A stretch of DNA of 64,000 nucleotides from Candidatus Methylomirabilis sp. (GTDB lineage: Bacteria > Oederibacteriota > PGYV01 > DYJU01). Positions 4,618 through 55,428 of this stretch are shown piece by piece (the stretch's first letter is position 1; every line of letters begins with the position of its first letter). Location: NCBI GenBank assembly GCA_020722985.1, contig DYJU01000001.1:4943-68942 (forward strand). Reading direction: 5' to 3'. The position numbers and the translations under genes were made by a program. The notes beneath the pieces are model-generated. The model was not told the DNA's origin, ran no database searches, and was given only the letters and a program-made list of their open reading frames with translations.

Positions 4618-4931
4618 GTAATGATTTAGCCACCAGGAGTAATTAAAAAGTTCGTATATTAAAAAAGACCTGGCGATGTCATTCTTAGGAAGCCGAAGTA
4701 GAAGTGAAGTGAGAAAAATAAGGGCGTATGAGGCTTAAGGAAGCAATCTGGCAGTTGAAAAACGAAAGAAGACAACACTAAAAGGCGATCGGTGATAAAA
4801 TCAAGATTGCTCTGTCAGCCTCATCAAACGGTAGAATAGAAGATAGAGGGAATCATTCGCCTGACAACGCAATGACAAATAAAAAATTTATTTATGGACC
4901 AATTTTGTTCTGCTAACGGCTAAACTATTAC
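4618..4931 (+). mobile_element. MITE-like repeat bounded by terminal inverted repeats, copy 1 (~315 bp)
   Basis: The 5' end reads GTAATGATTTAGCCACCAGGAGT and the 3' end reads AACGGCTAAACTATTAC. The conserved core is cattcttaggaagccgaag...aagcaatctggcagttgaaaaacgaaagaagacaa...gataaaatcaagattgctctgtcag...tcgcctgac...gcaatgacaaa. It contains no consistent ORF. Confidence 0.65.
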
Positions 4932-5012
4932 AAAAAATAAATTTTTGCATAGAAAAAAATTTTTATTTAATTTAAAATATTTAAAATATATTTAATTTAA
5001 CTGGAGGATAAA

Positions 5013-5906
5013 ATGAATGAAAAGATAAAAAAATTGTTAATCATTTTTATAGTAATAATTTTTATAATTATTTTTTTTCGGATAATAAGAAAAATAATTA
5101 TAACAACGGGAAAATCAAAAGAAATTTTTTTTGAAGTTGGCATTGAAAAATTAGTTTTAAAAGAAATTACAGAGATAATAAAATTTGAAGGTGTTGTAGA
5201 AGGAGATCCACAGATAAAGGTATATTCACAGGTCCCGGGAAAATTTGAAAAAAATAATGTAATAGAAGGTAATTATGTTAGGAAAGACAATATAATTTCA
5301 TATATAAATAGAGATGTTATCGGTTTTGAATATAATTTAGCTCCTGTAAAATCGCCAATAGATGGAATTGTTGTAAAACTTTATTTTTTTGATAAAGGCG
5401 ATACTGTTTTTCCTCAGATGCCAGTTGCTGAAATTGCAAAAGTTGATAATTTAAAAGTGGTTATTAATACAGGTGAAAAAGATTTAATTAAATTAAAAAA
5501 AGACCAGGCAGCAAAAATTACTTTAATTTATGATGAAAATGTTTATCTTAAAGGAAAAGTTTTTTCTGTAACGCCATTTATAAATAAAGACACCCTTTCA
5601 GGAACAGTTGTAATAAAAGCAAAAAATCCCGAACAAAAAATTAAACCAGGACAATCTGTTAAAATTGAAATTGAAACAGAAAAGAAAATTGCGTTTTTAA
5701 TTCCAGATAAAGCAATATTGACAGATGAAAATGGCACATATGTTTTTATAAATGATAATAATACTGCTAAAAAAGTTTATGTTAAAATCGGTTATATAGA
5801 AAATGATTTAACGGAGATAATAGGAGATTTAAAGGAAGGAATAGAAGTAATTACAGAAGGTAGTTTTAAACTTTATGAAAATGCAAAAATAAAAATATTA
5901 AATTAA
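5013..5906 (+). CDS. Efflux RND transporter periplasmic adaptor subunit (membrane fusion protein, HlyD/AcrA family)
   Basis: It has an N-terminal transmembrane or signal anchor and biotinyl/lipoyl-like and beta-barrel adaptor motifs (VKSPIDGIVV; KPGQSVKIEIE). It sits immediately upstream of the RND pump with a 10-bp gap. A GGAGG ribosome-binding site precedes the ATG. Confidence 0.8.
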   Translation: MNEKIKKLLIIFIVIIFIIIFFRIIRKIIITTGKSKEIFFEVGIEKLVLKEITEIIKFEGVVEGDPQIKVYSQVPGKFEKNNVIEGNYVRKDNIISYINRDVIGFEYNLAPVKSPIDGIVVKLYFFDKGDTVFPQMPVAEIAKVDNLKVVINTGEKDLIKLKKDQAAKITLIYDENVYLKGKVFSVTPFINKDTLSGTVVIKAKNPEQKIKPGQSVKIEIETEKKIAFLIPDKAILTDENGTYVFINDNNTAKKVYVKIGYIENDLTEIIGDLKEGIEVITEGSFKLYENAKIKILN

Positions 5907-5916
5907 AAGGATAAAA

Positions 5917-8900
5917 ATGAATATCGCAAAATTAGCAATTGAAAGACCCATTTTTGTAGTAATGATAATCATGTCTTTAATTACTTTAGGGGTAATTGGT
6001 TATAATAACATGGGCGTTGATTTACTTCCCGATGTTGAATATCCAACAATTACAGTGATAATAATATATGGAGGAGCATCAGCAGAAGAAATGGAAAATT
6101 TAATAACAAAACCGGTAGAAGATGCATTAGGAACGATACAGGGATTAGATTCAATTATTTCCACATCAAAAGAAAATATAGCATATATAACTGCAAAATT
6201 CGGACTTGGAACAGATATAAAATATGCAGAAATGAAAGTAAAAGAAAAAATTGACCTTGTAAAAACTAAACTGCCAGATGGCATAGAAGAGCCAAAAGTA
6301 ACCAGATTTTCTTTAACAGATATACCAGTGATTGCTTTAACTTTACAGGGTAAAAAAGATCTTGCCACCTTGTATGATATCGTTGAAGATACTTTAAAGC
6401 CGGAGTTAGAAAAAATATCAGGTGTTGGTAAGGTTGAAATCTGGGGTGGGAGGCAACGGGCAGTTATGGTTTATATTAATAAATCTTTACTTTCAGCAAG
6501 GGCAATTACTTTAAATCAAATAGTTGAGTCAATTAAAAAAGAAAATTTAAATATACCGGCTGGTTCTTTAAAAACAGACAACAAAAGTATCATTGTGAGG
6601 GTAAAGGGGCAATCTGACAGTATTGATGAAATAAAAAATATCCCTATAAAAACTTATACAGGAGAAGTTGTAAGATTGAAAGATATCGCAGATGTTAAAT
6701 TTACTTTAAAAGATGAAGAAGCAAGGGCAAGGGCAGAAGGAGAAAACGCAATAAGAATTGGTGTTTATAAACAAAGTGGAGAAAATACTGTTGCGGTTGC
6801 AAAAAGGGTTAAAATAAAGTTAAAAGATATACAAAAAGTTTTAAAAGATGAAGCAAGTATAAAGATATTCAGGGATCCTTCGGAATATATAAAAATAAGC
6901 ATAAAAGGTTTGCAGGAAGACATTTTACTTGGTGCTTTATTTGCAATGCTTATTGTGTGGTTATTTATGGGTAATTTCAGATCAACGATAATTACTGCAA
7001 TAGCATTGCCAAATTCATTGATAGGGGCTTTCTTTTTTATTTCAAATTTTGGATTTACAATTAATCTTATGGTTTTGCTTGCGCTTTCTCTCTGTATTGG
7101 ACTTTTAATTGATGATTCCATAGTTGTAAGAGAAAATATTTTTAGATATATGGAAAAAGGATTAAAACCAAAAGAAGCAGCTGAAAAAGGAACCAATGAA
7201 GTAGCTCTTGCAGTTGTTGCAACAACCATTTCAATTATGGCAGTTTTTATACCCATTTCTTTTTTACAGGGGGTAGTGGGACAATATTTCAAACAATTTG
7301 GTTTAACGGTTGCTTTTGCTTTAGTAATATCTTTAATTGATGCGTTTACTACAGCACCCATGCTATCTGCTTACTGGTGGAAAAAACATAAAAAAGGGGA
7401 AGGTGAATTTAATAAATTTTTTGATAAACTTTCTTATGAATGGAATTTATTTTATGAAAAGTTAAACAGCATTTACAGAGAAATACTTATCTGGGCGTTA
7501 GAAAAAAAGAAAAAAGTTTTATCAATTGTAATACTTTTATTTATTTTCAGTATAATATGCCTGAAATTTATTGGACTTAGTTTTTTACCTGACACGGATT
7601 ATCATAACTATGAGTTAAAATTTGAAACTTACCCGGGCGCTACACTTGATGAAACAGATAACAAAATAAAAAAAATTGAAAAGTATATTATGTCACACAA
7701 AGAAACTTTAAAATGTTTTACCGCAGTTGGGACAGATGGAGAAAATACCGGCACAATATTTGTGGAGACGGATAAGAAAAAACAAAAAAAACCAACACAG
7801 ATGATAGTAGAAGAAGTTATAAGTTATATAAAGAAAAATTATGGCAGTGATTTATTGATAAATCAGGAAGAAACAGGTGGAGCAGAAGTTATCTCGGGTG
7901 GTGGAGATAGTGCTTCTCTGGTTATAAATATAACTGGTCCAGAAATGAAAACTTTAGAAAAGTTAGCAACAGAAATAAAAAATGTAATATTAGAGACAGG
8001 GGGAGTATCTGGTGCGAATACTTCATTAAAAACAGGCAAACCAGAAATAATTATAAAGTTAGATAGAACCAAAGCATCAAGTTTTGGTATAACAAGTTAT
8101 GATATTGGTATTTTATTAAATTTTCTTATAAAAGGTGCTGAAATATCAAAATTTAAAAAGCGTGAAAAAGAATATGATATTATTTTAAGAATGAAAAAAA
8201 ACAATATCAAAACAATTGATGATTTAAAAGATATAATCATAACAACTTCTGCGGGTAAAAAAATACCATTAAACGCAATAAGCACAATGGAATATACGAC
8301 AGGTCCTGTTGAAATATTAAGAGAAAATAAAAAAAGAGTAATAAAAATTACTGGAAATTTACAGCATGGGTTTGCATTGGGCGATGTTATAAATATGATA
8401 AACGAAAATATTAAACGAAATGTTAAAATTCCAGAAGGTTATGAATATAATTTTTCAGGACAGGCAACACAGATGACAGAAACTATAACCCAGATGAGTA
8501 AGGCAATGTTTTTTGCGCTGCTTTTTATGTATATGATACTTGCATCTCTTTATAATTCTTTTATCCAGCCGCTTATTTTAATGCTTTCTGTTCCTCTTGC
8601 AATAATAGGCGCTTTTCTTACGCTTTTGCTTTTTGGAATAAAAATGGATGTTATGGCTATGATAGGAATTTTAATGGTTTTAGGTCTTGTCGCAAAAAAT
8701 GGAATACTACTTATAGATTTTACAAATCAGAAGAGAAAAGAAGGCTTATCAGCAAGAGATGCTTTGCTATATGCAGGTCCAATAAGGTTAAGGCCGATTT
8801 TGATGACTACATTTGCAATGATATTTGGAATGTTGCCGCTTGCTTTGGGTTTTGGAGAAGGACCGATGAGAACAAGAGCAATGCCTGTTGCAGTAATAGG

Positions 8901-9009
8901 CGGGTTGCTTACTTCTACTTTCCTAACTCTTGTTGTGATACCGATTGTGTATGAAATGTATGAGAATTTTAAAGAGAGGTTTAGTAAAAAAGTTAATAAA
9001 AAAAATTGA
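5917..9009 (+). CDS. RND efflux pump, inner-membrane permease of the AcrB/AcrD/AcrF family (hydrophobe/amphiphile efflux-1)
   Basis: The protein is 1030 aa with the classic AcrB N-terminus (IERPIFVVMIIMSLITLGVIGYNNMGVDLLPDVEYPTITV). It has the duplicated 12-TM architecture with two large periplasmic loops. No outer-membrane factor gene follows it. Confidence 0.9.
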   Translation: MNIAKLAIERPIFVVMIIMSLITLGVIGYNNMGVDLLPDVEYPTITVIIIYGGASAEEMENLITKPVEDALGTIQGLDSIISTSKENIAYITAKFGLGTDIKYAEMKVKEKIDLVKTKLPDGIEEPKVTRFSLTDIPVIALTLQGKKDLATLYDIVEDTLKPELEKISGVGKVEIWGGRQRAVMVYINKSLLSARAITLNQIVESIKKENLNIPAGSLKTDNKSIIVRVKGQSDSIDEIKNIPIKTYTGEVVRLKDIADVKFTLKDEEARARAEGENAIRIGVYKQSGENTVAVAKRVKIKLKDIQKVLKDEASIKIFRDPSEYIKISIKGLQEDILLGALFAMLIVWLFMGNFRSTIITAIALPNSLIGAFFFISNFGFTINLMVLLALSLCIGLLIDDSIVVRENIFRYMEKGLKPKEAAEKGTNEVALAVVATTISIMAVFIPISFLQGVVGQYFKQFGLTVAFALVISLIDAFTTAPMLSAYWWKKHKKGEGEFNKFFDKLSYEWNLFYEKLNSIYREILIWALEKKKKVLSIVILLFIFSIICLKFIGLSFLPDTDYHNYELKFETYPGATLDETDNKIKKIEKYIMSHKETLKCFTAVGTDGENTGTIFVETDKKKQKKPTQMIVEEVISYIKKNYGSDLLINQEETGGAEVISGGGDSASLVINITGPEMKTLEKLATEIKNVILETGGVSGANTSLKTGKPEIIIKLDRTKASSFGITSYDIGILLNFLIKGAEISKFKKREKEYDIILRMKKNNIKTIDDLKDIIITTSAGKKIPLNAISTMEYTTGPVEILRENKKRVIKITGNLQHGFALGDVINMINENIKRNVKIPEGYEYNFSGQATQMTETITQMSKAMFFALLFMYMILASLYNSFIQPLILMLSVPLAIIGAFLTLLLFGIKMDVMAMIGILMVLGLVAKNGILLIDFTNQKRKEGLSARDALLYAGPIRLRPILMTTFAMIFGMLPLALGFGEGPMRTRAMPVAVIGGLLTSTFLTLVVIPIVYEMYENFKERFSKKVNKKN

Positions 9010-9044
9010 AAATTCTTTTTAGTTATAGGTATTATAGATTTTTT

Positions 9045-9362
9045 GTAATAGTTTAACCATCAGAAGCAACTTATGAAAGTTCATATATTAGTAAAAGCCC
9101 CTTGAAGTTGTCATTCTCAGGAAGCCGAAAGGGGAGAATGAAAAACAAATGGCGTATGAGAATTAACAAAGCAATATAGCAGTTGAAAGCATGAAGCAAA
9201 AAAGGTGAGAAGGCAATCGGTAATAAAAGCAAGATTGCTCTGTCAGTCTCATTTAACGATGGGGTTAAAAAATAGGGGTTATAGTTCGTCTGACTTTAAA
9301 ATGGAAAGGCAAAAAAATTTATTTATGGGCGAAATTTATTCAACCAGTAACTAAATTATTAT
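9045..9362 (+). mobile_element. MITE-like TIR-bounded repeat, copy 2
   Basis: It starts GTAATAGTTTAACCATCAGAAG, shares the family core, and ends CAACCAGTAACTAAATTATTAT. It lies between the RND pump stop and the tetR promoter. Confidence 0.65.
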
Positions 9363-9426
9363 AATTTTTAATTTATTTAACTGTCCGCCATGTCTTTCAT
9401 TATTCCCATTAACAATAAAATTTTAC

Positions 9427-9472
9427 TTGATTTAATATTTTTTTATTTTATAATTTAACCATATGGTTAAAT
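9427..9472 (+). promoter_or_regulatory. Promoter (TTGATT, 16-bp spacer, TATAAT) overlapping a perfect 20-bp palindrome ATTTAACCATATGGTTAAAT. This is the likely autoregulatory operator of the TetR-family repressor.
   Basis: The palindrome at 9453-9472 is perfect. It lies 24 bp upstream of the tetR start at 9496 and overlaps the -10 element. Confidence 0.55.
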
Positions 9473-9495
9473 TCAATGGTCAAAAGGATGAATAA

Positions 9496-10158
9496 ATGAA
9501 GGGGAAAAAAGAAAAAGAAAGTAAAAGGGATAAGATTTTAAATGCCGCAGCAGAAGAATTTATAGAATATGGTTTTTATGGTGCAAGAACGCAAAGAATT
9601 GCAAATAAAGCAAAAGTGAATAAAGCAATGCTCCATTATTATTTTTCAAGTAAAGAAAATATTTACAAAGAAGTTTTAAAAACAGTTTTTAATTTACTTA
9701 TAGAAAAATTAAATTCAATAAAAGTTGATGATAAAGAGGGTAGACCAGAAGAAAAAATGCGACAAATAATTGATGCCTATAATGAAGTTTTTAAAAATTA
9801 CAGTAATTATGTAAGATTGGTGATTTATGAAGTTATAACGGGCGGCAGATACATACAACAGATAATCTTTGAAAATATCAACAGGATTCCTTTTAATCCA
9901 TGGACAGGTAAGTTATATAAATACTTTGAAAAACAGATAAGAAAAGGTAATATAAGAAAACTTAATATAATTCAGATGCTTATAAGTTTAATAAGTCAGA
10001 TGGTGCCTGTTTATATAGCAAAACCTGTTGCTGAAAATATATTTAAAAAATTAGGACTTGATAAATTTATAATAGAAAAATTTATCAATAAGAGAAAAGA
10101 GTTTGTAATGGATATTCTAAAACATGGGATTTTTAAAAAAAGTAATAAAAGGAGATAA
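9496..10158 (+). CDS. TetR/AcrR-family transcriptional regulator (YbiH/CecR-like)
   Basis: It has an N-terminal helix-turn-helix typical of TetR (ILNAAAEEFIEYGFYGARTQRIANKAKVNKAMLHYYFSSKENIY). It is the first gene of a regulator, HlyD, ABC, ABC, ABC-2, ABC-2 operon. Confidence 0.8.
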   Translation: MKGKKEKESKRDKILNAAAEEFIEYGFYGARTQRIANKAKVNKAMLHYYFSSKENIYKEVLKTVFNLLIEKLNSIKVDDKEGRPEEKMRQIIDAYNEVFKNYSNYVRLVIYEVITGGRYIQQIIFENINRIPFNPWTGKLYKYFEKQIRKGNIRKLNIIQMLISLISQMVPVYIAKPVAENIFKKLGLDKFIIEKFINKRKEFVMDILKHGIFKKSNKRR

Positions 10159-10163
10159 AGTTT

Positions 10164-10967: not shown

Positions 10968-10969
10968 AA

Positions 10970-15578: not shown

Positions 15579-16412
15579 ATGCATAATCTGGTTATAGTAG
15601 ACAAAGAAGATGAAAATTATTCTTTTGATAAAATTTCAAATAAAGTTATTTTAGGTGATTGTTTTAAAGTAATGAAAAGGTTGCCTTCCGAATTTGCCGA
15701 TTGTGTCTTTGTTGATCCCCCTTATTTTTTGCAACTCCCACCTAAAAAATTATTAAGGTGGACCGGTAGCATAGTTGATGGTGTAAATGACAAGTAGGAT
15801 ATTTTTAAAGATTTTGATGATTATGATAATTTTACAAAAAATTATTTGACGGAAATTAAAAGATTAATGAAACCCAATGCAACTATCTGGATTATAGGGA
15901 CATATCATAATATTCATAGAATTGGAAAGATAATGTTAGATTTGGGCTTTTGGATTTTAAATGATATAATATGGTTTAAGACAAATCCAATGCCTAATTT
16001 TTTAGGCGTTAGATTTACAAATGCTACAGAAACTTTACTTTGGGCTGTAAAAGATAAAAAAATAAAAAAATATACTTTTAATAAAGAAATTGCCAGAAGT
16101 TTCAATGGCGGTAAATTGGGAATAAATGTATGGCAAATACCGCTTTGCACTGGACGGGAGAGATTAAGAAATGAAAAAAAGGAGAAAATACATTCAACAC
16201 AAAAACCACAAGAATTATTAAGAAGAGTTATTTTAACATCTACAAAAGAAAATGATGTTATTTTTGACCCGATGGCTGGCACTGGAACAACTGGATTTAT
16301 GGCAAAAAAATTAAATCGTAAATTTGTAATGATAGAAAAAAATAAAGATTACGTTGATGCCATTGTTAAAAGATTTGAGACAGAATTTAATTCTTTATTA
16401 TTTAAAACATGA
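15579..16412 (+). pseudogene. Beta-class (DPPY) N6-adenine or N4-cytosine DNA methyltransferase of the CcrM/M.HinfI type, interrupted by a single in-frame TAG
   Basis: ORFs 15579-15797 and 15846-16412 lie in the same reading frame. Only the TAG at 15795-15797 separates them. Motif IV (VFVDPPY) comes first, then IWIIGTYHNI..FWILNDIIWFKTNPMPNF, then the C-terminal SAM-binding FDPMAGTGTTG. The TAG falls where CcrM-like enzymes have Trp (DEWDKF against DK*DIF), which fits a TGG to TAG change. Confidence 0.65.
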
Positions 16413-17275
16413 ATTATAAAAATTTTTGTTTAATTTTAAATAAACATATTTTTGAAGATGAAAAAAAAGAATTATTAAAAAATATCTCTGAAAGGCCAGA
16501 GCGTTTTATCGGATTGTTCAGACCTACAAAACCTGGTGCTAAAATTCTTCAACATATTTTGTAATCACACGAAATCAGATTTGGCGATGCTTTTGAAGAG
16601 TTAATAGGAGAAATTTTAAGAGAGTGTGGGTTTGTAATTCATAATAAAACAATTACTGATGAAAATGGAAATTTTTTATCATTGGATCAATATTATGAAA
16701 TAAATGAGATTTATTATTTTATTGAACAGAAAGTAAGGGATGATCATGACTCTACTAAAAAACGAGGACAAATCTCTAATTTTGAATCAAAATTAGAGAT
16801 ATTGTATAAAAAACACAAAGAGAAACTTGTTGGGATTATGTATTTTATTGATCCAGAACTTTCAAAAAATAAAAATTATTATTTGCCTGAATTAAATAAA
16901 TTATGTAAATTTTATGATGTTAAAACTTATTTGTTTTATGGAAAAGAATTATTTAATCATCTTGGCAGGTCAGATTTATGGAATCATATTCTCTCCTGGT
17001 TGAAAGAATGGAAAGACAGCTTACCGGAAATCCCGGAAATTGATTTTGATAAAACGCCAGAAAAAAGTTTTGAACAATTGAAAGAATTACCAATTAGATA
17101 TTGGCGTAAGGTATTAGAAAATGAAAAATTATGGACAGAAGGAATTGTTAAAGCAATTTTTAGAAAAGGCGAAGTACTAAAATTATTATTAGAATATTTT
17201 AAACAACAAAAAGACAAGCCACACATTGAATTATCAAAATTGCTAAAGGATTTATTAAAAAAATATTATGGTTAA
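16409..17275 (+). pseudogene. Probable cognate type II restriction endonuclease gene, interrupted by an in-frame TAA. Specific function is unassigned.
   Basis: Its ATG at 16409 overlaps the methyltransferase TGA in an ATGA arrangement. A 51-codon N-terminal segment ends at a TAA at 16562-16564. The listed ORF 16682-17275 continues in the same frame, and the frame is already open from 16565. Position directly after a methyltransferase is typical of an R-M pair, but no catalytic motif was recognised. Confidence 0.35.
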
Positions 17276-17344: not shown

Positions 17345-17742
17345 GTAATAGTTCAACTTCCAGAAGTTCGTTTATAAAAGTTCATATATTAGCAGAAAAC
17401 TCTTGAAGACGGACTTCTTAGGAAGCCAAAAGAAAAGTGTAAAAGATTAAATAAGGATTAATGTGAGCCAGACGAAGCAATTTTGCAGTTAAAAAACGAA
17501 AGAAGACAACACTAAAAGGCGTCAGGTGATAAAAGCAAGATTGCTTTGTCGGGTTCAATTAAACGAGGGAATAGAAGACAAAGGGGTTTGTTCGTCTGAC
17601 ATTTAGAAGGTAGAGACGCCCATCCTTGGGCGTCTACACCCGGGGAATAGAAGATAAAGGAATTCATTCACCTGACTTTAAATGACAGAACAAAAAATTT
17701 ATATATGGGTAAAATTTATTCAATCAGCAACTAAATTATTAT
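17345..17742 (+). mobile_element. MITE-like TIR-bounded repeat, copy 3, carrying an internal ~75-bp duplication
   Basis: It starts GTAATAGTTCAACTTCCAGAAGT and ends CAGCAACTAAATTATTAT. The segment gaatagaaga..cctgac is duplicated inside it and includes a perfect hairpin, agacgccca-tcct-tgggcgtct, at 17605-17626. Confidence 0.65.
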
Positions 17743-17808
17743 AATTTTTAACTTCTTTAATCGTGCATCCTATATTTCCTTATTCCTCAACCTGTGCAAT
17801 TTTTTTAC

Positions 17809-17835
17809 TTGACAAATTATACGATAGCGTATAAA
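17809..17835 (+). promoter_or_regulatory. Promoter (TTGACA, 15-bp spacer, TATAAA) ending 8 bp before the ATG of the AAA ATPase gene, which suggests a leaderless transcript
   Basis: The sequence is ttgacaaattatacgatagcgtataaaATGtc... No Shine-Dalgarno sequence precedes the ATG at 17844. Confidence 0.35.
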
Positions 17836-17843
17836 ATGTCATT

Positions 17844-19097
17844 ATGAAATTAAAAAGGACAATATATAAAAGCATTATACGAGGAATAAAACGCAAAGAA
17901 ATATCAATAATTATAGGTCCAAGACAGGTCGGTAAAACAACACTGCTTAATGAAGTGGCCGGGCATTGCGTTAAAAATAAATTAAAATATAAATATTTTA
18001 ACCTTGAAATGCCTGCTGATGCCGCTTATTTTGCGCAAAATTTTGGGGTCCTATTAAAAGAACTATGCGCTGAAAAAAACATTATTTTGATAGATGAATT
18101 TCATTACCTTCCTAATGCAACGAAATTATTTAAAACTGTATATGACGGTTATCAAGGGATTAAAATAATAGCATCCGGTTCATCCGCATTGGAAATGCAT
18201 AAGCACATGAAAGAGAGTCTGGCAGGAAGGCGGATTATTCACAAAGTTTATCCTTTGTCTTTTGATGAATGGCTTCCTTCAAAAACAAAAAATCAACTAC
18301 TTCCTCGCAGCATCAAAGAAAAAACCAATAATATATTTCATAAAAAAATTAAAAAATATTTTAATGAATTTTTAATTTATGGTGGTATGCCAGGGCTTGT
18401 GCATGAAAAAAACTCTTCAGACAAAAAAAGATTGTTGATAGACTTTGTCTCAACATATATACAAAAAGACGTTAAATCCTTATTAAGAGAAGAAGACGTG
18501 CTTTCTTTTAATAGATTAATTGCCCTTTTGGCTGCAAACGAAGGAGGATTATTAAGTGAAAATGCGGTATCGGGAAACCTTAATTATTCATTAAGACAGG
18601 TACGTAAAGATCTGGCAATTTTAAATCAAATGTTTTTACTTTACAGTTTGAAACCTTTTTCCACAAATAGGGGAAGAGAATTAAAACAAACTGTTAAAAC
18701 GTATTTTTTTGATTCTGGAATAAGAAATGCGATTATAAATGATTTTAGAAGTGTTAAATCGCGGGAAGATAAAGGTGCGTTATTTGAATCATTTGTTTTT
18801 AATGAAATACAAAAAAATATAAAAATAGGACAGGATATTTACTATTGGCGAACAAGGCAGAAGGACGAAGTGGATTTTGTGCTCGTTCAGGATAGAATGC
18901 CCGTGGCAATTGAAGTAAAATCTAATATTTATAATGACGAAGTTCCACATGGGATAAAGCGGTTCATTGATGTTTATCCAGAATGTAAAACTGCAGTGGT
19001 TTTAAATAGCGATTATTATGGTAAGACAACGTATAAAGGTAAAAAAATTATATTTGCACCACATTATTATGCACATTTACTACCAGATATTTTTTAA
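17844..19097 (+). CDS. AAA+ ATPase with a C-terminal DUF4143 domain (the archaeal-ATPase-like AAA_14 plus DUF4143 family)
   Basis: Walker A is GPRQVGKTTLL and Walker B is IILIDEFHY. The C-terminal region (YYWRTRQKDEVDFVL) is typical of DUF4143 proteins. Confidence 0.7.
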   Translation: MKLKRTIYKSIIRGIKRKEISIIIGPRQVGKTTLLNEVAGHCVKNKLKYKYFNLEMPADAAYFAQNFGVLLKELCAEKNIILIDEFHYLPNATKLFKTVYDGYQGIKIIASGSSALEMHKHMKESLAGRRIIHKVYPLSFDEWLPSKTKNQLLPRSIKEKTNNIFHKKIKKYFNEFLIYGGMPGLVHEKNSSDKKRLLIDFVSTYIQKDVKSLLREEDVLSFNRLIALLAANEGGLLSENAVSGNLNYSLRQVRKDLAILNQMFLLYSLKPFSTNRGRELKQTVKTYFFDSGIRNAIINDFRSVKSREDKGALFESFVFNEIQKNIKIGQDIYYWRTRQKDEVDFVLVQDRMPVAIEVKSNIYNDEVPHGIKRFIDVYPECKTAVVLNSDYYGKTTYKGKKIIFAPHYYAHLLPDIF

Positions 19098-19166
19098 CTA
19101 TCTTTGCTTAAAGGAACGAGCATAAATCCGCGGATGGTAAATGCGAAGGAGGGGGTTAAATTTAAC

Positions 19167-19488
19167 GTAATAGTTAAGCCACTAGAAGTGAATTTGTAAA
19201 AGTTTGGCTACTAGTAAGGAAACACTTGGCGATGTCATTGCGAGGAAGCCGAAAGAAAAGTGTAGAAAGAAAAATAAAAAGCGGACGAGGCTGACGAAGC
19301 AATCTGGCAGTTGAAAAACGGAAGCAGACAAGGTGAGAAAGCATCATGTGATAAAATCAAGATTGCTTTGTCGGGCGGGAGTTAACTGTGGAATAAAATG
19401 CATAAGTTATCGTTCGCCTGACTTTAAAATGACAGAACAAAAATTTATTTATAGACTGATTTTATTTTATTGGTGGCTAAACTATTGC
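19167..19488 (+). mobile_element. MITE-like TIR-bounded repeat, copy 4
   Basis: It starts GTAATAGTTAAGCCACTAGAAGT and ends TGGTGGCTAAACTATTGC. The internal ORF 19333-19542 is not conserved in frame among copies. Confidence 0.65.
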
Positions 19489-24574: not shown

Positions 24575-24902
24575 GTAATAGTTCGGATACCAGAGGTAAT
24601 TTATAAAAGTGCATATATTAGAAAAAAACTCTTGAAGGCGTTGATGGAAGAAAGCCGAAAAAGAATGGTGGAATGGGAAATAAGGGTAACGGGTAACGGA
24701 AGGATTAATAAAGCAATCTTGCAGTTTAAAAATGAAAGAAGACAAGGCGAAAAGGCAACCGTAAATAAAATCAAGATTACTTTGTCATGCAAAATTTAAG
24801 GTGTAATAGTAGATAAATGGACCCATTCACCTGACTTTAAAATGACAAAGCGAAAAATTTATATCTGGACTAATTTTGTTTTACCAGTGGCTAAACTATT
24901 AC
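24575..24902 (+). mobile_element. MITE-like TIR-bounded repeat, copy 5
   Basis: It starts GTAATAGTTCGGATACCAGAGGT and ends TACCAGTGGCTAAACTATTAC. The ORFs 24569-24799 (+) and 24557-24745 (-) are artefacts within it. Confidence 0.65.
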
Positions 24903-27111: not shown

Positions 27112-27431
27112 GTAAAAATTTAGTCACCAGAGGTAATTTACAAAAGTTCAGATATTAGTAAAAAACTCTTGAAGACGGCCTTCTTAGGAATCCGAAAGAG
27201 AAGCGTAGAAAGAAAAATAAAGGGCGGACGAGCAAAATGAAGCAATCTTGTAATTGTATAGCGGCAAGAAAACTAAGCTAAAAAACAATCGGTAATAAGA
27301 GCAAAGATTATTTTTAAGGTGGGAGTTAACTGTGAAATAAAAGACAAAAGGGCTTGTTTGCCTGACTTTAAAATGACAACAAAAAATTTATTTATTGGCA
27401 AATTTTATTATGCTAGTGGTAAAATTATTGC
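27112..27431 (+). mobile_element. MITE-like repeat, copy 6, with a degenerate 5' TIR
   Basis: The 5' end is GTAAAAATTTAGTCACCAGAGGT. The core is conserved (ggaatccgaaagagaag...aagcaatcttgtaattg...). The 3' end is GCTAGTGGTAAAATTATTGC. Confidence 0.55.
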
Positions 27432-27615
27432 ATATATTTTATAGGGAGGAACCCTTTTTGAAAAGTCCACACAATATTATACATTAACCAGTGGGAAAAT
27501 ATTGCGTAAATTCTAATTTTTGGCTATAATTATTTAATAAATAAATTTTAAAAATCTGTTCTATTTGAGGCTAAACTATTATCAGTATTGAAATATTCAT
27601 TAAGGAGGTTATATT

Positions 27616-27832
27616 ATGAAATTTAATATCATTCTTGAATCGGCTGAGGAAGGTGGTTTTAATGTGAGTGTTCCGGCCGCTTGACGGATGTTTTACGCAA
27701 GGGGTAACCGAAGAAGAAGCGATTAAAAACGCTAAAGAGGCTATTCTCACATATCTGGAAGGACTTAAAAAAATTAATCAAATTAAATCAGTGCTGAAAG
27801 CCATTCTGAAAGAAGTTGAGATAGTGCTGTGA
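27616..27832 (+). pseudogene. hicB: HicB-family antitoxin gene with a +1 frameshift
   Basis: The N-terminal frame gives MKFNIILESAEEGGFNVSVPAA and then a stop at 27682. The next frame continues RPLDGCFTQGVTEEEAIKNAKEAILTYLEGL, which matches the HicB consensus VPALPGCF.QG.T.EEA. A ribosome-binding site AAGGAGG is present. Confidence 0.6.
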
Positions 27833-28044
27833 GCAAGACTTTTTTAGAGGAGTAGGTAATAAAAGCACTGAGGAGAATCGGCTTTATTGTTGACCATCAG
27901 AGAGGAAGTCATGTATTCTTGCATAACATTGAACGTAATATCTCTGTTGTTGTGCCTATGCATAAGGAGTTAAAAAAAGGGACGTTAAATAACATAATCA
28001 AGAAAGCAGGCATTACAGTAGATGAATTAAAGGAACTGGTATAA
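27829..28044 (+). pseudogene. hicA: HicA-family mRNA interferase toxin gene with an in-frame TAG at codon 9
   Basis: Its GTG start overlaps the hicB stop in a GTGA arrangement. The translation reads [61 protein letters not shown]. The GSH..., VP.H and G.L...I...G motifs are typical of HicA. Confidence 0.6.
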
Positions 28045-28110
28045 TTTTTGATGATACAGTTCAAGAATTGTGTGGAAAAATTAATTAACATAAAAGGGTG
28101 CGCCTTGCCA

Positions 28111-28499
28111 GTAATGGTTCAGCCGCCAGAAGTGAACTTGGAAGAGTGTGGCTACCATTAAGTAAATATATGGCATTGTCATTTTTAGGAAGCCGAAAGA
28201 GGAATGTAAAATGGGAAATAAGGATAATATGAGCCGAATGAAGCAATCTTGCAGTTGAAAAACGAAAGAAGACAATATTAAAAGGCGATCGGTAGTAAAA
28301 AGCAAGATTGCTTTGTCAGGCGATAGTGAATGTATAAAAAATATAGGTTATCATTCGCTTTGCTTTAAAATGACAACGGAAAAAATTTAATGATTAATTT
28401 TGTTCTACCAGTGGCTAAGCTATTACCCTGATTTTGCAATGAAAGAGCGAAAAATTTATATCTTAACAAATTTTATTTTACCAACGGCTATACTGTTAC
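28111..28499 (+). mobile_element. MITE-like repeat, copy 7 (28111-28426), followed by a tandem partial duplicate of its 3' end (28427-28499)
   Basis: It starts GTAATGGTTCAGCCGCCAGAAGT. Its first 3' end is CTACCAGTGGCTAAGCTATTAC. The partial unit then repeats gcaatgaaagagcgaaaaatttatat...CCAACGGCTATACTGTTAC. Confidence 0.6.
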
Positions 28500-28688: not shown

Positions 28689-28716
28689 TTGACAAATAAT
28701 TAAAATATGCTATTAT
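28689..28716 (+). promoter_or_regulatory. Promoter (TTGACA, 16-bp spacer, TATTAT) whose -10 element ends 6 bp before the ATG at 28723, which suggests a leaderless mRNA
   Basis: The sequence is tttgacaaataattaaaatatgctattatttaaatATGaaa. No Shine-Dalgarno sequence is present. Confidence 0.35.
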
Positions 28717-48787: not shown

Positions 48788-48828
48788 AAACTTTACCGAT
48801 TGTCAATGCTGGTTGATATAACAAAGAC

Positions 48829-49154
48829 GTAATAGTTTTGCCATTAGAAGTCCACTTGTAAAAGTATGGCTACTAGTAAGGAAAACCCTAACTATTGTCA
48901 TTCTTAGGAAGCCGAAAGAGAAGTTAAGAAGAGGAAATAAGGGCGGACGGACGAGCCAGACGAAGCAATCTGGCAGTTGAAAAACGAAAGAAGACAAGAT
49001 AAAAAGGCGCTCAGGTATAAAAGCAAGATTGCTTTGTCAGACTCATTAAACGGAGGAATAGAAGTCAGAAGTTATCGTTTGCCTGACTTCGCAATGACAA
49101 AGTAAAAAATTTATTTATTGACCAATTTTGTCCTATCAGTGGCTAAAATGTTAC
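48829..49154 (+). mobile_element. MITE-like TIR-bounded repeat, copy 8
   Basis: It starts GTAATAGTTTTGCCATTAGAAGT and ends ATCAGTGGCTAAAATGTTAC. Confidence 0.65.
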
Positions 49155-49317
49155 TAATATTTTATTAATACTATTATTTTATAAAAAAGGGCAATCTTTT
49201 TTAATTATTTTCCCCTTTCTATTACAATTTTAACGGATACAGAACATGCTTTTTAAAATCAATAAACTATGATAAAATAAAAATCAAATTTATATTTAAT
49301 TCAGGAAGGAAAGAAAA

Positions 49318-51045
49318 ATGAATAAAATTCAGTTATTACCAGAAAATGTGGCAAACCAAATAGCAGCAGGTGAAGTAATTGTCAGGCCTGCATCCTGTGT
49401 TAAAGAACTTATTGAAAATTCAATAGATGCGAATGCGAAAAATATAAAAATAAACATAAAAAAAGCAGGCAGAAAACTAATAGAAGTTATTGATGATGGT
49501 TCTGGAATGAGTCATCAGGATGCCCAAATTGCATTTTTACGGCATGCGACAAGTAAAATAAGAAATACAAACGATCTTAATAATATTTCAACCTTTGGTT
49601 TCAGGGGGGAAGCGCTTGCTGCTATTTCTTCTGTTTCAAAGGTTGAAATTTTAACAAAAGATAGTGAAGCAGAAGAAGGTATTTTCCTTTATTTGGAATC
49701 AGGCAGGATAAAAAAAGAAGAAAAGGTGGCTTTAAATAAGGGAACCATAATAAGAGTAAAAGAACTTTTTTTTAATACTCCAGCACGCCTTAAATTTTTA
49801 AAATCAGATTATACAGAAGAAAATCATATAATAGAAACAGTAACCATGCTTGGACTTTCAAATGAAGGAATTTCTTTTACTCTAAAAATTGATGAAAAAG
49901 ATGTAATATATTTCCCGGCACAGATAAAATTAAAAGAAAGAATAAAAATCATATACGGATCAGAAATCTATAACTCGCTTTTAGAAATAAAAAATTTTTC
50001 AGATAATATAAAAATATATGGCTATATTGCAAAACCGGAAATTACAAAAACAACAAGGAATTTTATTAATATTTTTGTAAATCAAAGACCGGTTTCGGTG
50101 CGCAGCCTTTTATATGCAATATACGAAGGATATGGCACAACCATGATGAAAGGCAACTATCCTGTTGCATTTATTTTTATTGATATTAATCCGCAATTGA
50201 TTGATGTAAATGTTCATCCTGCAAAAGCAGAAATTAAATTTAAAGATGAAAGATCGGTTTTTAATAAAATAAAATATGCAATTTCTGAAGTTTTAAAAAG
50301 TTCTGAACTTACACCTGAGATTAACCTTGAAAAAGCCGGGAGAAAGCCAGAAATAGAAAATGCCATAAAAGAATACTTTGCCAGAGAAACGCCTGAAATG
50401 TTCCCTGATAATAAAAATGTTTTTGAAAAAAGTAAGGATACAGAGATAGTTTCCCGGAGAAGAAAGTTTTTTAATTATAAAATTTTAGGGCAATTACATA
50501 ATACATATATAATAGGTGAGGATGAAGAAAATTTAATTATCATTGACCAGCATGCCGCACATGAAAAGGTATTATTTGAGCAATTTATAAAAGAAGTGGA
50601 AGAAAAAAGGGTTAAAGTTCAGGAAATGTTAATTCCAGAAATAATAGAGTTAACCCCTGAAGAAAAAAATGTATTATTAAATAATATGGAAATTTTTAAC
50701 GAAATGGGATTTGAACTGGAACCTTTTGGAAAAAATCAATATAAGGTAACGGCACACCCTGTAATAATAAAAGAAAAAATAAACAGAGAATTTATCAAAG
50801 AAATTTTAGGAAATATAAAAGAAAAAGAAAAATCAGAAAAAAAAGAAATATTAAAAGATCTGATAGCAACCACCGCCTGTCGGGCAGCAGTTAAAGGAGG
50901 CGATATTTTAAAGGATGAAGAGATAGAGAATTTACTTACAGAATACTTTGAAATAGAAGATCCATTCAGCTGTCCGCATGGCAGACCACCTATAATTAAA
51001 ATTTCTTTTTCGGAAATTGAGAAAATGTTTAAAAGGAAAAAATAA
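49318..51045 (+). CDS. mutL: DNA mismatch repair protein MutL
   Basis: The N-terminal GHKL ATPase motifs are present (ANQIAAGEVIVRPASCVKELIENSIDA; DDGSGM; FGFRGEAL). The C-terminal dimerisation domain ends with a CPHGRP metal-binding motif. Confidence 0.85.
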   Translation: MNKIQLLPENVANQIAAGEVIVRPASCVKELIENSIDANAKNIKINIKKAGRKLIEVIDDGSGMSHQDAQIAFLRHATSKIRNTNDLNNISTFGFRGEALAAISSVSKVEILTKDSEAEEGIFLYLESGRIKKEEKVALNKGTIIRVKELFFNTPARLKFLKSDYTEENHIIETVTMLGLSNEGISFTLKIDEKDVIYFPAQIKLKERIKIIYGSEIYNSLLEIKNFSDNIKIYGYIAKPEITKTTRNFINIFVNQRPVSVRSLLYAIYEGYGTTMMKGNYPVAFIFIDINPQLIDVNVHPAKAEIKFKDERSVFNKIKYAISEVLKSSELTPEINLEKAGRKPEIENAIKEYFARETPEMFPDNKNVFEKSKDTEIVSRRRKFFNYKILGQLHNTYIIGEDEENLIIIDQHAAHEKVLFEQFIKEVEEKRVKVQEMLIPEIIELTPEEKNVLLNNMEIFNEMGFELEPFGKNQYKVTAHPVIIKEKINREFIKEILGNIKEKEKSEKKEILKDLIATTACRAAVKGGDILKDEEIENLLTEYFEIEDPFSCPHGRPPIIKISFSEIEKMFKRKK

Positions 51046-51049
51046 AGTT

Positions 51050-52009
51050 ATGCTTATCATTGTTGCGGGACCAACCGGCACCGGTAAATCAGAAATAGCG
51101 GTTGAACTTGCATTAAAATTAAATGGAGAAATAATATCAGCAGATTCAATGCAGATTTATAAAGGAATGGATATTGGAACTTTTAAAATAAAAAAAGAAG
51201 ATATGAAAGGAATAAAACATTATATGTTAGATGTGGTTTTGCCATCTGATAATTTTACAGCAGGTGATTTTAAAAAAATGGCTGAAAATTTTATTGATAA
51301 AATAAAAAGTAAAAAAAAAATACCTATAATTGCTGGTGGAACAGGTTTATATATTGACGCAATAATAAGGGGGCTTTTTGAATTTAAGAAAACAGACCAG
51401 AATTTAAGAAAAAAATTAAATGATATCTATAAAGAAAAGGGACTTGATTTTTTAGTGAATATGTTAAAAGAAAAAGATAAAGAAGCAATAAATTTAATAG
51501 ATATAAAAAATCCGAGGCGTGTGCTAAGAACGCTTGAAATAATTTTATCAGAGAATCTTAAATTCTCAGAGATAAGAAAAAAAACAGAAAAAACAAAATA
51601 TAAAGACAGTTATATTTTATTTGTTTTTTTTATGGATAGAAAAAAATTATACGAAAAAATTGAAAAAAGGGTAGAGGAAATGTTTGAAAATGGCTTAATA
51701 GATGAAGTAAATAACTTAATAAAAAGCGGAATTGATTTAAATACAACTTCCATGCAGGCAATTGGCTATAAAGAAATTATAGATACTTTTTATACGAAAA
51801 AAATAATGGATTTAAAAGAAAAAGTTAAAAAAGCAAAAGAAAAAATAAAAATAGCCACAAAAAATTATGCAAAAAGACAGATAACATGGTTTAGAAGATA
51901 TAAAGAAGCAATATGGATTGATGTCACTGATAGAAAAAAAGAAGATATGGTTCAAGAAATTTTATCAATTATAAAAGAAAAGGAGAAAAATGAAAAACAT
52001 ACTAATTAA
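51050..52009 (+). CDS. miaA: tRNA dimethylallyltransferase MiaA
   Basis: The track ORF starts at 51017, but the likely start is the ATG at 51050 (MLIIVAGPTGTGKSEIAVELA...ISADSMQIYKGMDIGT). This is the P-loop and DSMQ motif of MiaA. It lies immediately after mutL, which is the classic synteny. Confidence 0.85.
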   Translation: MLIIVAGPTGTGKSEIAVELALKLNGEIISADSMQIYKGMDIGTFKIKKEDMKGIKHYMLDVVLPSDNFTAGDFKKMAENFIDKIKSKKKIPIIAGGTGLYIDAIIRGLFEFKKTDQNLRKKLNDIYKEKGLDFLVNMLKEKDKEAINLIDIKNPRRVLRTLEIILSENLKFSEIRKKTEKTKYKDSYILFVFFMDRKKLYEKIEKRVEEMFENGLIDEVNNLIKSGIDLNTTSMQAIGYKEIIDTFYTKKIMDLKEKVKKAKEKIKIATKNYAKRQITWFRRYKEAIWIDVTDRKKEDMVQEILSIIKEKEKNEKHTN

Positions 52010-53264
52010 TAGAAATTTTTTACTTTTATGGTCAGGACAGATCTTTGAACAATTTGGTGATAGTTTAAATTTAATGGCTTTAATTGCCTGGGTTATAAAT
52101 TTTCATTCTAAAGAGGGAAGCAACGCTATGCATATGTCAATTTTAATGTTCTGGCTTGGACTACCTATAATACTTTTAGGACCATTTGCAGGTGTTTTTG
52201 TTGACAGAATTAAAAGAAAAACAATTTTACTTTTAGCCGCTGCAATCCGCGGCTCCCTGGTTTTTATTATGTTTTTAATAATTTCAGGAAAAGAAAATAC
52301 ATGGTCAGTATATTTAATTGTATTTTTTATATCAATTGTTACCCAATTTTTTATACCTGCAAAATCATCATTTATACCCGTAATTGTTGAGAAAGAAAAA
52401 CTTTTAATTGCAAATTCTCTTTCCGCAACAACAACAATAATCGTCCAGATATTCAGTTATGCTCTTGCCGGGATTATTATTGCTGAAATAGGTGTTGAAA
52501 AAACTTTGCTTATAAATGTATTTACTTACATCATTTCATTTACAACCCTTTCATTTATAAATGCGAGGGAAGAGATAAAAAAAGGAATCAATATTAAAAC
52601 TCAACAGATTTTTAATGAATTAAAAGAGGGTCTTTCTTTCATAAAACATCAGGAGGATATATTTTTTGTTGTTAGAAGAGTTTTTGTTTTAATGATTGTT
52701 ACTGGATTTTTTTATGTTGCATTTACAAGTTCATTTATTCAGGATGTAATAGATGCATCTCATATCAAAATGCAGAGTATAAAAGCAATAGGTTTTATGC
52801 AGTCATTTTTAGGATTCGGACTTGTTGCTGGTATATTTTTTATTGAAAAGGTGGCAAAAAGATTTTCGGCATTTAAATTGATACGATTTTTATTTCCATT
52901 ACTTGGTATTTTAGTGGTTGTTTTTTATTATGTTAAAAATTTTTATTATATGCTTTTTATGGCATTTTTTGCAGGCATTGCAGCTGTTGTTATATTGAGT
53001 ATTGCTGAAACACTTATTCAGAATAAAACGCCTGATAATTTACGCGGTAGAGTTTTTGCTGCATATTATGTATTAAGAAATATAGGAACAGTTATTGCTT
53101 CTGTTTTAACAGGACCTTTGACAATGATAATAAAAGAATCTTTAATAATTTTACTTTCGGGTTTGACACTTATTATTTATGCAATTATAAATATATTTGT
53201 AAAAATAAAAGATATAAAAACAGAGTTAAAAATAATTTTTAAAGGTGAACCATGGGTGAAATAA
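51990..53264 (+). CDS. Major facilitator superfamily transporter
   Basis: It has twelve predicted transmembrane helices arranged 6+6 with a central loop. Confidence 0.65.
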   Translation: MKNILINRNFLLLWSGQIFEQFGDSLNLMALIAWVINFHSKEGSNAMHMSILMFWLGLPIILLGPFAGVFVDRIKRKTILLLAAAIRGSLVFIMFLIISGKENTWSVYLIVFFISIVTQFFIPAKSSFIPVIVEKEKLLIANSLSATTTIIVQIFSYALAGIIIAEIGVEKTLLINVFTYIISFTTLSFINAREEIKKGINIKTQQIFNELKEGLSFIKHQEDIFFVVRRVFVLMIVTGFFYVAFTSSFIQDVIDASHIKMQSIKAIGFMQSFLGFGLVAGIFFIEKVAKRFSAFKLIRFLFPLLGILVVVFYYVKNFYYMLFMAFFAGIAAVVILSIAETLIQNKTPDNLRGRVFAAYYVLRNIGTVIASVLTGPLTMIIKESLIILLSGLTLIIYAIINIFVKIKDIKTELKIIFKGEPWVK

Positions 53265-53785
53265 AAGAAGTAAAAGAAGAAAAGTTAGTTATGGGTTTTA
53301 TATATAAAGAAGATGATATTTATTTAAAAGCAAAAGAAAAACTTATAGAAAAATTCGGGAATATTGACTTTGAAAGCAATAAGATATCTTTTATTCATAC
53401 GGATTATTATAATAAAGAAATAGGAGAAAATCTCTTAAAAAAATTTATCTCTTTTGAGAAATTTGTTTTGCCTGATATTCTGGCTGATATTAAACTTTTT
53501 ACAAATGATGTTGAAAAACAGTTTTTATATGAAGGAACAAATAAAAGAAAGATAAATATAGATCCTGGATTACTATCTCTTTCAAAGTTTATACTTGCCA
53601 CTACCAAAAATTATGACCACAGGATCTATATAGGTAAAGGAATATATGCAGAAGTTACTTTAAAATATACCCAAAAAGATTTCAAAGAATTTGAATGGAC
53701 CTATCCTGATTTTAGAACGGATGAATATAAAAATATATTAAAGATAATAAGAGAAATTTACAAAAAGCAGATAAATGTTTTATAA
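53252..53785 (+). CDS. Hypothetical cytoplasmic protein, 177 aa
   Basis: No diagnostic motif was found. It overlaps both neighbouring genes. Confidence 0.35.
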   Translation: MGEIKEVKEEKLVMGFIYKEDDIYLKAKEKLIEKFGNIDFESNKISFIHTDYYNKEIGENLLKKFISFEKFVLPDILADIKLFTNDVEKQFLYEGTNKRKINIDPGLLSLSKFILATTKNYDHRIYIGKGIYAEVTLKYTQKDFKEFEWTYPDFRTDEYKNILKIIREIYKKQINVL

Positions 53786-54992
53786 AGGTGATAAAATGAG
53801 ACGTAAATTAGAAAATTTAAAAAAAGAAATTTTAGAGGAATTTAACAGAGTTATTTCTTTCTGGATGGAAAATGTTATAGATTATAAAAATAGGGATTTT
53901 ATTGGTAAAATAAAAGCAGATGGAACAAAGGAAATGCAAAGTGAAAAATCTTTAATTTTGGCAACAAGAATACTATGGACATTTTCTAAATGTTATCAGA
54001 GATTTAAAGAAAATAAATATTTAGAAACAGCAGATATTTTATATGAATATATAAAAAATAATTTCGTTGATAAGGAGTATGGCGGACTTTACTGGATGTT
54101 GGATTATAATGGAAATGTTATTGATTCTACAAAAAAATTTTATGGGCAAAGTTTTGGTATATACTCATTTGTAGAATATGCAAAGGCATCAGGTAATAAG
54201 CAGGCAGTAGCAGATGCTTATGAAATATTTGATATTATTGAAAAGTATGGAAAAGATAAAGAAAATGGAGGATATATTGAATCAGCATCAAGGGATTTTT
54301 CTTTTATAAAAGACATGCGGCTTTCAGAAAGAGATATGAATGCACCTAAGAGTATGAATACGCATCTTCATATTTTAGAAGCATATTCAAACCTGGCAAA
54401 TTTTACAAAAGATGAAAAGGTCATAAAAGTATTAGAAGAAATAATTGAGATTTTTTTAGATAAGATTATGCAGAAAAATGGGCATTCAGGATTATTTTTT
54501 GATATGAAATGGAATTTGCTTTCTGATTTAATATCTTACGGACACGATATAGAAACGAGCTGGCTTTTAAAAGAAGCAGTAGAAAATTCAAATGATAAAG
54601 ATTTAAAAGAAAAGGTAATTTTATCTTCTATAAATTTAGCAGAAGTTTCAACAAAAGAAGCAATAGATAAAAAGGGTGGTATTTTATACGAAGGGGCTAG
54701 CAAAGGTCCATTTAAAACAAAAAAAGAATGGTGGATGCAGGTTGAAGCAATGGTTGGATATATGAATGCTTATCAAATGACAGATAAGGAAATATATATA
54801 GATAAATTATTAAATATATGGAAGTTCTGTAAGGAAAAATTCAGAACCCCTTATGGAGAATGGTATTATTTTGTTGATGAAAAAAACGAACCGGTAAAAG
54901 AAAGGGAAATTGCAGGTCCCTGGAAATGCCCGTATCATAGCATAAGGGCTTTTTTAGAGATAATGGAAAGGATTGAAAAGGTTTTTATTTAA
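53775..54992 (+). CDS. N-acylglucosamine 2-epimerase (AGE) superfamily protein, cellobiose/mannose epimerase-like
   Basis: It contains (alpha/alpha)6-barrel AGE motifs (GGLYWMLDYNGNVIDSTKKFYGQSFGIYSFVEYAKASG; DKENGGYIE). Confidence 0.65.
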   Translation: MFYKGDKMRRKLENLKKEILEEFNRVISFWMENVIDYKNRDFIGKIKADGTKEMQSEKSLILATRILWTFSKCYQRFKENKYLETADILYEYIKNNFVDKEYGGLYWMLDYNGNVIDSTKKFYGQSFGIYSFVEYAKASGNKQAVADAYEIFDIIEKYGKDKENGGYIESASRDFSFIKDMRLSERDMNAPKSMNTHLHILEAYSNLANFTKDEKVIKVLEEIIEIFLDKIMQKNGHSGLFFDMKWNLLSDLISYGHDIETSWLLKEAVENSNDKDLKEKVILSSINLAEVSTKEAIDKKGGILYEGASKGPFKTKKEWWMQVEAMVGYMNAYQMTDKEIYIDKLLNIWKFCKEKFRTPYGEWYYFVDEKNEPVKEREIAGPWKCPYHSIRAFLEIMERIEKVFI

Positions 54993-55105
54993 TATTTTAA
55001 AAAAATAATTTAGACTTTTTTGTTTTGTTTGCATTTTATAAAGTGTAACAGAATTTTAAAGGAAATGGGTAAAGTTAAAAACTGCCTTTATATTTCAGAA
55101 TAATA

Positions 55106-55428
55106 GTAATAGTTCAGACACCAGAAGTCCACCTGTAAAAGTGTGATTACTAGAAAGAAAATACATGGCTTTGGCATTCTTAGGAAGCCGAAATAAAAGT
55201 TAAGAAGGGAAAATAAGGGCATATGAGGCTTAAGGAAGCAATATGGCAGTTAAAAGCCAGAAGATGATAATGGAAGAAGGCATTTTGTGATAAAAGCAAG
55301 ATTGCTTTGTCAGGCGAGAGTTAAGGTGGAATAGAAGGCAGTGGTTATCATTCGCCTGACTTCGCAATGACAAAATGAAAAAATTTATATATGGACAAAA
55401 TTTATTCTGCCAGTGGCTAAAATATTAC
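55106..55428 (+). mobile_element. MITE-like TIR-bounded repeat, copy 9
   Basis: It starts GTAATAGTTCAGACACCAGAAGT and ends CTGCCAGTGGCTAAAATATTAC. Confidence 0.65.

Follow-up and report, generated by a model that had tools for sequence, protein, structure and literature searches.

Nine copies of a repeat of ~320 bp are spread over a 64,000-nucleotide stretch of contig DYJU01000001.1 (assembly GCA_020722985.1, listed as Candidatus Methylomirabilis sp.), here called the window. The repeat is very probably a lineage-specific MITE (miniature inverted-repeat transposable element): non-coding, non-autonomous, bounded by 16-bp imperfect terminal inverted repeats (TIRs) and moved in trans by a DDE-type transposase. 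The element has transposed repeatedly in this one lineage, also into older copies of itself, and its copies have since drifted far apart, to pairwise identities of 65–85% (mean 73%). The nested stems that it can form derive from a palindrome-rich founder sequence and decay by independent mutation of both sides.

An initial annotation of the window, made from its letters alone, had described nine copies in one orientation. Repeat search, multiple alignment and an nhmmer profile search of the window recovered the same nine full-length copies, all on the + strand: c1 (4618–4931), c2 (9045–9362), c3 (17345–17742), c4 (19167–19488), c5 (24575–24902), c6 (27112–27431), c7 (28111–28426), c8 (48829–49154) and c9 (55106–55428). 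The nhmmer profile built from these copies finds all nine again and has zero matches on the − strand of the window. The copies range in size from 314 to 398 bp, every one lies between open reading frames (ORFs), as had been noted, and together they cover 4.7% of the window, close to the 5% first estimated. A 28-nt core motif of the repeat matches eight times in the window, against 0.04 matches expected from shuffles. Identity to the consensus spans 76–89% across copies, so the copies are of different ages. The window itself is AT-rich (30% G+C), with 52 of its 53 listed ORF-bearing genes on the + strand and a GC skew that is strongly positive throughout.

Termini, target-site duplications and a nested insertion

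The last bases of the element are TTAC. The complementary part of the TIRs measures 16 bp (GTAATAGTTNAGCCAC / GTGGCTAAACTATTAC) and is paired in 87.5% of cells across 13 copies; the TIRs had first been put at about 19 bp, a length from which the last three bases drop out, being CAG on one side and CCA on the other and not complementary. The copies contain no transposase, and the open stretches within them change frame from copy to copy, in line with the initial annotation. A pseudo-peptide profile derived from the copies found no match among 5.8 billion predicted proteins, and the 64-kb window holds no transposase gene.

Target-site duplications (TSDs), which had been proposed as a check on mobility, are 8 bp long and were found in part of the copies. 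The flanking 8-mers are identical at all eight positions for c1 (AAAAAATA) and for copy d1 in comparison contig L010 (AAAATTTA), and those of a further copy, d2, match at 7 of 8. Duplications of at least 7/8 thus occur in 3 of 12 copies; in a control of 132 mismatched pairs of left and right flanks, none reached this level. Copy d1 also provides a nested insertion: the copy around it is older and more decayed, and AAAATTTA is duplicated on either side of d1. In a base-by-base reading the surrounding copy runs ...GAAAAAATTTA, is interrupted by d1, then resumes at AAAATTTATATATGAAC...GCCAAACATTAT and reaches its own degenerate 3′ end.

A published working definition of bacterial MITEs includes a small size of about 50–600 bp (PMC6382973). 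By that definition the repeat has the size, the absence of coding capacity, the TIRs, the fixed-length TSD and the dispersed copies with filled and empty sites of a MITE. The closest parallel we considered is MITEAba12 of Acinetobacter, which is likewise small, AT-rich and non-coding, has TIRs of the same length (16 bp in both), retains its TSDs only in part, prefers AT-rich targets and is presumed to be mobilized in trans (PMC6382973). The present element differs in being about three times longer (320 versus 113 bp) and in making a TSD of 8 bp rather than 9 bp (PMC6382973); its copies are also much more diverged (mean identity as above), it has a strict orientation bias, and no parent insertion sequence (IS) was found for it in the window or the fetched loci.

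A burst restricted to one lineage

Exact matches of its proteins assign the window to the metagenome of a sulfidic-cave biofilm (Joint Genome Institute (JGI) 3300000227 'TB_AS07_7', metagenome-assembled genome (MAG) GCA_973628015.1 and run SRR1559028). Together with the window, further contigs from the sample give 17 separate insertions in the reachable stretches of this genome, or about one copy per 5–7 kb: the nine in the window, four in L010/L017, one in L003, two extra 3′ halves in L020/L021 that have their own flanks, and one partial copy that starts a contig. The contig L003 belongs to a same-sample GenBank MAG labelled Acetofilamentum sp., a Bacteroidota name.

The element is restricted to this lineage and absent from its nearest relatives: in ~66 kb of sequence from relatives (L013–L016, L023, L024), no copy appears even at a threshold of E ≤ 10. 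MutL places the organism among relatives at 88, 80, 75 and 71% identity, and the nearest named homologues, at 53–57%, are those of Candidatus Goldbacteria. The junction between a gene for a 1076-aa protein and mutL measures 531 bp here, with c8 in it, versus 10–60 bp, and empty, in three of these relatives (MutL identity 80, 75 and 71%). The c9 site is likewise empty in relative L015.

Scans of genome, metagenome and viral collections with the 28-nt core motif returned one true extra copy (that in L003) and one distant relative (L008). We attribute the other motif matches to chance, as they lack a profile match at E ≤ 1e-3; those in L001 and L005 are short, weak and confined to the motif. The distant relative, at L008 100–290 (metagenome Ga0172364), is shorter and much diverged, shares the core including the central hairpin, and has GTAAT...ATTAC-like ends ~190 bp apart. 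Among plasmid and phage records, the consensus has no BLAST match.

Contigs of other assemblies end within copies (L011, L012, L019, L022) or diverge after a copy, as a repeat of high copy number would lead one to expect. At c7, three assemblies agree over the first ~232 nt and then continue into three different 3′ halves and flanks, switching at the best-conserved core. Past c9, the window and L010 stay together for only 55 bp (to window 55483). This disagreement within and after copies implies that more copies exist and that the repeat confuses assemblers, and both c7 and c9 may be chimeric in the window over their 3′ half and right flank. Another small palindromic repeat, rich in G+C (TCTCCCCAGAGGGGAGA / CCCTCTCCACCAAGGGGAGAGGG), occurs at window 55440–55475 and at L010 16552–16575; one copy of it stands just after c9, near the 55483 divergence of the window and the NCBI MAG contig.

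Hairpins without covariation

The initial annotation had suggested that the repeat may also be a structured RNA, such as a riboregulator or a processed non-coding RNA, whose helices are kept by selection on the + strand transcript. There are observations of the kind that such an RNA would produce. The helices occur in most copies: across 13 copies the four helices are paired in 85.1% of cells, versus 29–45% when the 3′ partners are slid by one to three columns. The consensus folds far better than dinucleotide shuffles on the + strand (z = −4.3), one stem of c4 holds G-U pairs, and all copies are co-oriented with genes. Of the three internal stems that had been described as nested within the TIR helix, all are present in the consensus; in several copies H2 and H4 are disrupted.

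We consider this explanation very unlikely, and we find no covariation. In the four helices (42 pairs), two pairs show double changes against 2.6 expected from shuffles that let the two sides of a stem vary independently, the observed pairing of 85.1% compares with a shuffled mean of 85.3% (416 of 500 shuffles reach the observed value), and the covariation score is 0.116 against 0.118, with power limited to the 13 copies. An 87-pair minimum-energy consensus structure gives the same picture (80.1 versus 80.0% paired, 11 versus 9.8 double-change pairs and a score of 0.141 versus 0.144, observed versus shuffled). Since none of these measures departs from what shuffling gives, the paired arms of the stems mutate independently; the best-kept pairs of the central hairpin never vary and are therefore uninformative on covariation.

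Nor is there strand asymmetry. The G-U pairs described in c4 are real, and across copies they form no general trend: cells with G-U, tolerated on the + strand, number 38, those with A-C, tolerated on the − strand, number 31, and plain mismatches number 50. The reverse strand of the consensus folds better than the forward one (z = −5.7), and good folding of both strands is what is expected of a DNA palindrome. Rfam returned no match at gathering scores and only chance-level matches at E ≤ 10. The flanking genes are functionally unrelated, those downstream of copies being for RND efflux, TetR, an AAA ATPase, RmuC, a DinG-like helicase, OmpA and MutL, and relatives keep the same genes without the element. 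A riboswitch or leader function was discarded in view of these unrelated downstream genes. Selected RNA structure is thus not supported, and the hairpins are inherited DNA palindromes.

Conservation along the element is only mildly uneven: it reaches 0.87–0.88 at the TIR-containing ends and 0.84–0.93 in the blocks that form the arms of the central hairpin, versus 0.74–0.82 in most other blocks. The TIRs and the central hairpin may be better kept in source copies as sites needed for transposition.

Candidate parent transposases

In the mechanism we envisage, a DDE-type transposase from another locus of the genome would cut and paste the element, or copy it, into A/T-rich intergenic targets and duplicate 8 bp on insertion. 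Ends that start with GTAA and an 8-bp duplication point, we presume, to the IS66 family. A parent from that family is accordingly the most likely one, an assignment that is tentative and built on these two traits. PMC11946415 (citing Ross et al. 2021) describes IS66 terminal inverted repeats of 20–30 bp that start with GTAAGCG, and 8-bp direct repeats as characteristic. Measured against that description the likeness is partial: the 8-bp duplication and the initial GTAA agree, whereas the ends here read GTAATAG, with TAG in place of GCG, and the complementary stretch is 16–17 bp rather than 20–30 bp. The tnpA, tnpB and tnpC genes of IS66 elements were not seen in the reachable stretches of this genome, and no IS66 Pfam domain was found among the called genes of the fetched loci.

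An IS256-like element (L013) is the sole IS with a transposase that was seen in this lineage. The IS256 family also makes 8–9-bp duplications. In the 88% relative the IS256-like element sits at the c9 site, and a remnant of its terminus at window 28052–28098 (GATACAGTTCAAGAATTGTGTGGAAAAATTAAT...), near-identical to the IS end in L013 (~5990–6034), adjoins c7, whose 5′ end starts 12 nt after it. Copy c7 may have inserted into or beside such an element. We nonetheless rejected the IS256-like element as the parent, because its terminus (GATACTGTCAAGAATTGTGTGG...) has no similarity to the TIR of the repeat.

Uniform orientation and competing explanations

The initial annotation had pointed out that the copies are oriented like the flanking genes, a pattern that extends to every further copy that could be reached: all 17 insertions are co-oriented with neighbouring genes (p about 1.5e-5, two-sided, if orientation were random). 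Gene direction and positive GC skew coincide in all accessible loci, so that a transcription-linked and a replication-linked cause are indistinguishable. The + strand of the element is 60% purine, with a GC skew of +0.21. The accompanying suggestion that the copies would be co-transcribed with the genes fared less well. In a consensus scan of 17–29 kb only, the strongest promoter-like sites near copies fall between c3 or c7 and the downstream gene (17809–17837 after c3, 28689–28716 after c7), and no promoter or intrinsic terminator recurs inside c3–c7. Copy c8 is probably inside a transcription unit, because the corresponding junction in relatives is too short for a terminator.

For a MITE with such a bias, the explanation we prefer is purifying selection, which would have removed insertions in the opposite orientation from the tight junctions of co-directional genes. 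In that orientation the element would put a pyrimidine-rich, C-rich, G-poor tract into the mRNA and could cause polarity. A stronger claim, which we consider unlikely, is that the MITE has an additional cis effect on host transcripts, like that of ERIC and Correia elements, and that selection on this effect (a stabilizing or insulating 3′ structure, or avoided polarity between co-directional genes) fixes the orientation. In its favour are the 17 of 17 co-oriented insertions, the position of c8 in a junction that is 10–60 bp long in relatives, probably within a transcription unit, and the purine-rich + strand with G over C, whose reverse would place a C-rich, G-poor tract in the mRNA. However, c3–c7 lack a consistent promoter or intrinsic terminator, the 13 copies show no covariation, and a replication-linked cause is equally compatible with the bias, gene strand and GC skew coinciding everywhere. 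ERIC and Correia elements have orientation-dependent effects on mRNA, and the likeness to them drawn by the initial annotation holds in that ERIC/IRU and Correia (CREE/NEMIS) elements are also intergenic and MITE-like, occur at high density and can fold into long stem-loops when co-transcribed. It fails on size and duplication, ERIC being 127 bp and Correia elements about 100–155 bp with a TA duplication, both from Proteobacteria, whereas the present repeat is 320 bp long with an 8-bp TSD and comes from an uncultured bacterium; the comparison is one of descriptions, not of sequences. Quite unlikely, in our estimate, is an orientation that is a property of the element, either as a DDE-type MITE whose insertion follows replication or transcription or through co-option of the copies as co-transcribed, cis-acting modules at operon junctions.

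Two other kinds of element were considered. A derivative of an IS200/IS605-type single-strand transposon (a palindrome-associated transposable element, PATE), or another inserter coupled to the replication fork, would directly explain the orientation and would suit an orientation that strictly agrees with positive GC skew at every locus, the palindrome-rich architecture and the terminal TTAC. But elements of the IS200/IS605 type lack TIRs and do not duplicate their target, while this element has 16-bp TIRs and 8-bp TSDs, including those of a clean nested insertion; no TnpA(Y1), TnpB or IscB gene was seen in any locus, and Rfam gave no HEARO or omega-RNA match, all of which makes such an origin highly improbable. 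Invertible promoter switches (invertons) upstream of operons, or integron attC-like sites, come to mind because inverted repeats bound a segment of ~300 bp upstream of genes and because the uniform orientation resembles that of attC sites in a cassette array. We reject them, as no promoter is conserved inside the scanned copies, no recombinase or integrase lies nearby, three independent assemblies over the same copies show one orientation, the flanking housekeeping genes are syntenic in relatives without the element, and TSDs and a nested insertion are present. The size of the element is also far above that of attC sites, which measure 57–141 bp.

Several observations weigh against a MITE as set out above. 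A clear TSD is kept in only 3 of 12 copies; for MITEAba12 the share is 40% (PMC6382973). An autonomous parent with matching ends (GTAATAGTT...AGCCAC) was not found in the window or the fetched loci, and the proposed parent family fits imperfectly, the TIRs being shorter than the 20–30 bp given for IS66 in PMC11946415 and sharing only GTAA of GTAAGCG. The same orientation in 17 of 17 insertions is not expected of a plain MITE, and MITEAba12 shows no orientation preference (PMC6382973). The conservation of the central hairpin is somewhat raised, so constraint beyond the ends is possible.

Copies and their surroundings

The copies differ in length and setting. On the left of the window, c1 (314 bp) lies between divergent genes, an mscS-like gene on the − strand and HlyD/AcrB efflux genes on the + strand, and c2 (318 bp) starts 36 nt after the stop of the AcrB-like gene, upstream of a TetR gene, and has a degenerate 3′ TIR. 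The longest copy, c3 (398 bp), contains an internal partial duplication, in which profile positions 208–261 are repeated at 17628–17741, plus a small hairpin insertion. Another ~45 nt past the degenerate 3′ TIR are common to c2 and c3 (window 9363–9406 and 17743–17786).

Between c3 and c4 is a gene for a DUF4143 AAA ATPase (17800–19097), and c4 (322 bp) separates it from rmuC. Homologues of this ATPase occur across many phyla. One at 77% identity (L023, L024) has a near-identical promoter-like region (CTTGACAAATTATACG..GCGTATAAAATGTCATTATG), pointing to mobility of the gene as a cassette. We discarded the possibility that gene and repeats form a repeated composite unit, as the gene is single-copy here and its 77% homologue stands in an unrelated context free of copies.

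Further along, c5 (328 bp) lies upstream of a gene for a DinG-like helicase and is followed by c6 (320 bp). A probable solo 3′-end remnant of a further copy (AAATCTGTTCTATTTGAGGCTAAACTATTAT; 27552–27582, + strand) equals the consensus 3′ end at 23 of 30 bases; it was read directly from the sequence, being too short for the profile search. Directly 3′ of c7 (316 bp), whose 3′ half is the one that differs between the three assemblies, the final ~73 nt of the element occur a second time (28427–28499, + strand). Copy f1 in L017 is likewise trailed by a second ~73-nt end (L017 2625–2700), with the same junction as at c7 (...TATTAC/C(C)TGATTT). Towards the right, c8 (326 bp) occupies the junction of the 1076-aa gene and mutL, and c9 (323 bp) follows a gene for a GlcNAc 2-epimerase.

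The JGI annotation contains odd features of 21–23 'residues' over ~250 nt that overlap or adjoin copies (L017 2416–2641 and 8229–8504; L021 11291–11542). In the window, such features fall at ~4306–4581 and 19134–19385, and Rfam finds nothing at window 4150–4650.

Other features of the window

Between c6 and c7, at ~27617–28045, is a small toxin–antitoxin pair, hicB-like and hicA-like. The hicB-like frame is apparently interrupted by a stop near 27683, and the JGI annotation gives a weak HicB_lk_antitox match. An apparently decayed restriction-modification system extends over 15579–17275 and comprises a fragmented N6/N4 DNA methylase (15846–16412), whose Pfam match begins at profile position 37, and an ORF for a HinfI-like endonuclease (16682–17275; Pfam match in the precomputed annotation). 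The right end of the window is taken up by a giant ORF on the + strand (55584–64000) of at least 2805 aa that runs past the window end; it has a tandem repeat with a 12-bp period at 57284–57931 and a G+C content of 34–41%, above that of the rest of the window.

Implications

One non-coding transposon makes up ~5% of this stretch and most of its large intergenic gaps (8 of ~11). It also breaks and mis-joins metagenome assemblies, so contig joins in MAGs of this organism need care. For the interpretation of similar repeats elsewhere, the case illustrates that nested palindromes and a few G-U pairs are no evidence of an RNA as long as the stems show no co-variation between their arms. The repeat family offers a clean case of a MITE burst confined to one lineage, that of an uncultured bacterium with Candidatus Goldbacteria as its closest named relatives. 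The strict bias in the orientation of the repeat is the single trait that calls for further work. Should the copies prove to have been co-opted as cis-acting modules, function would reside in the well-kept central hairpin.

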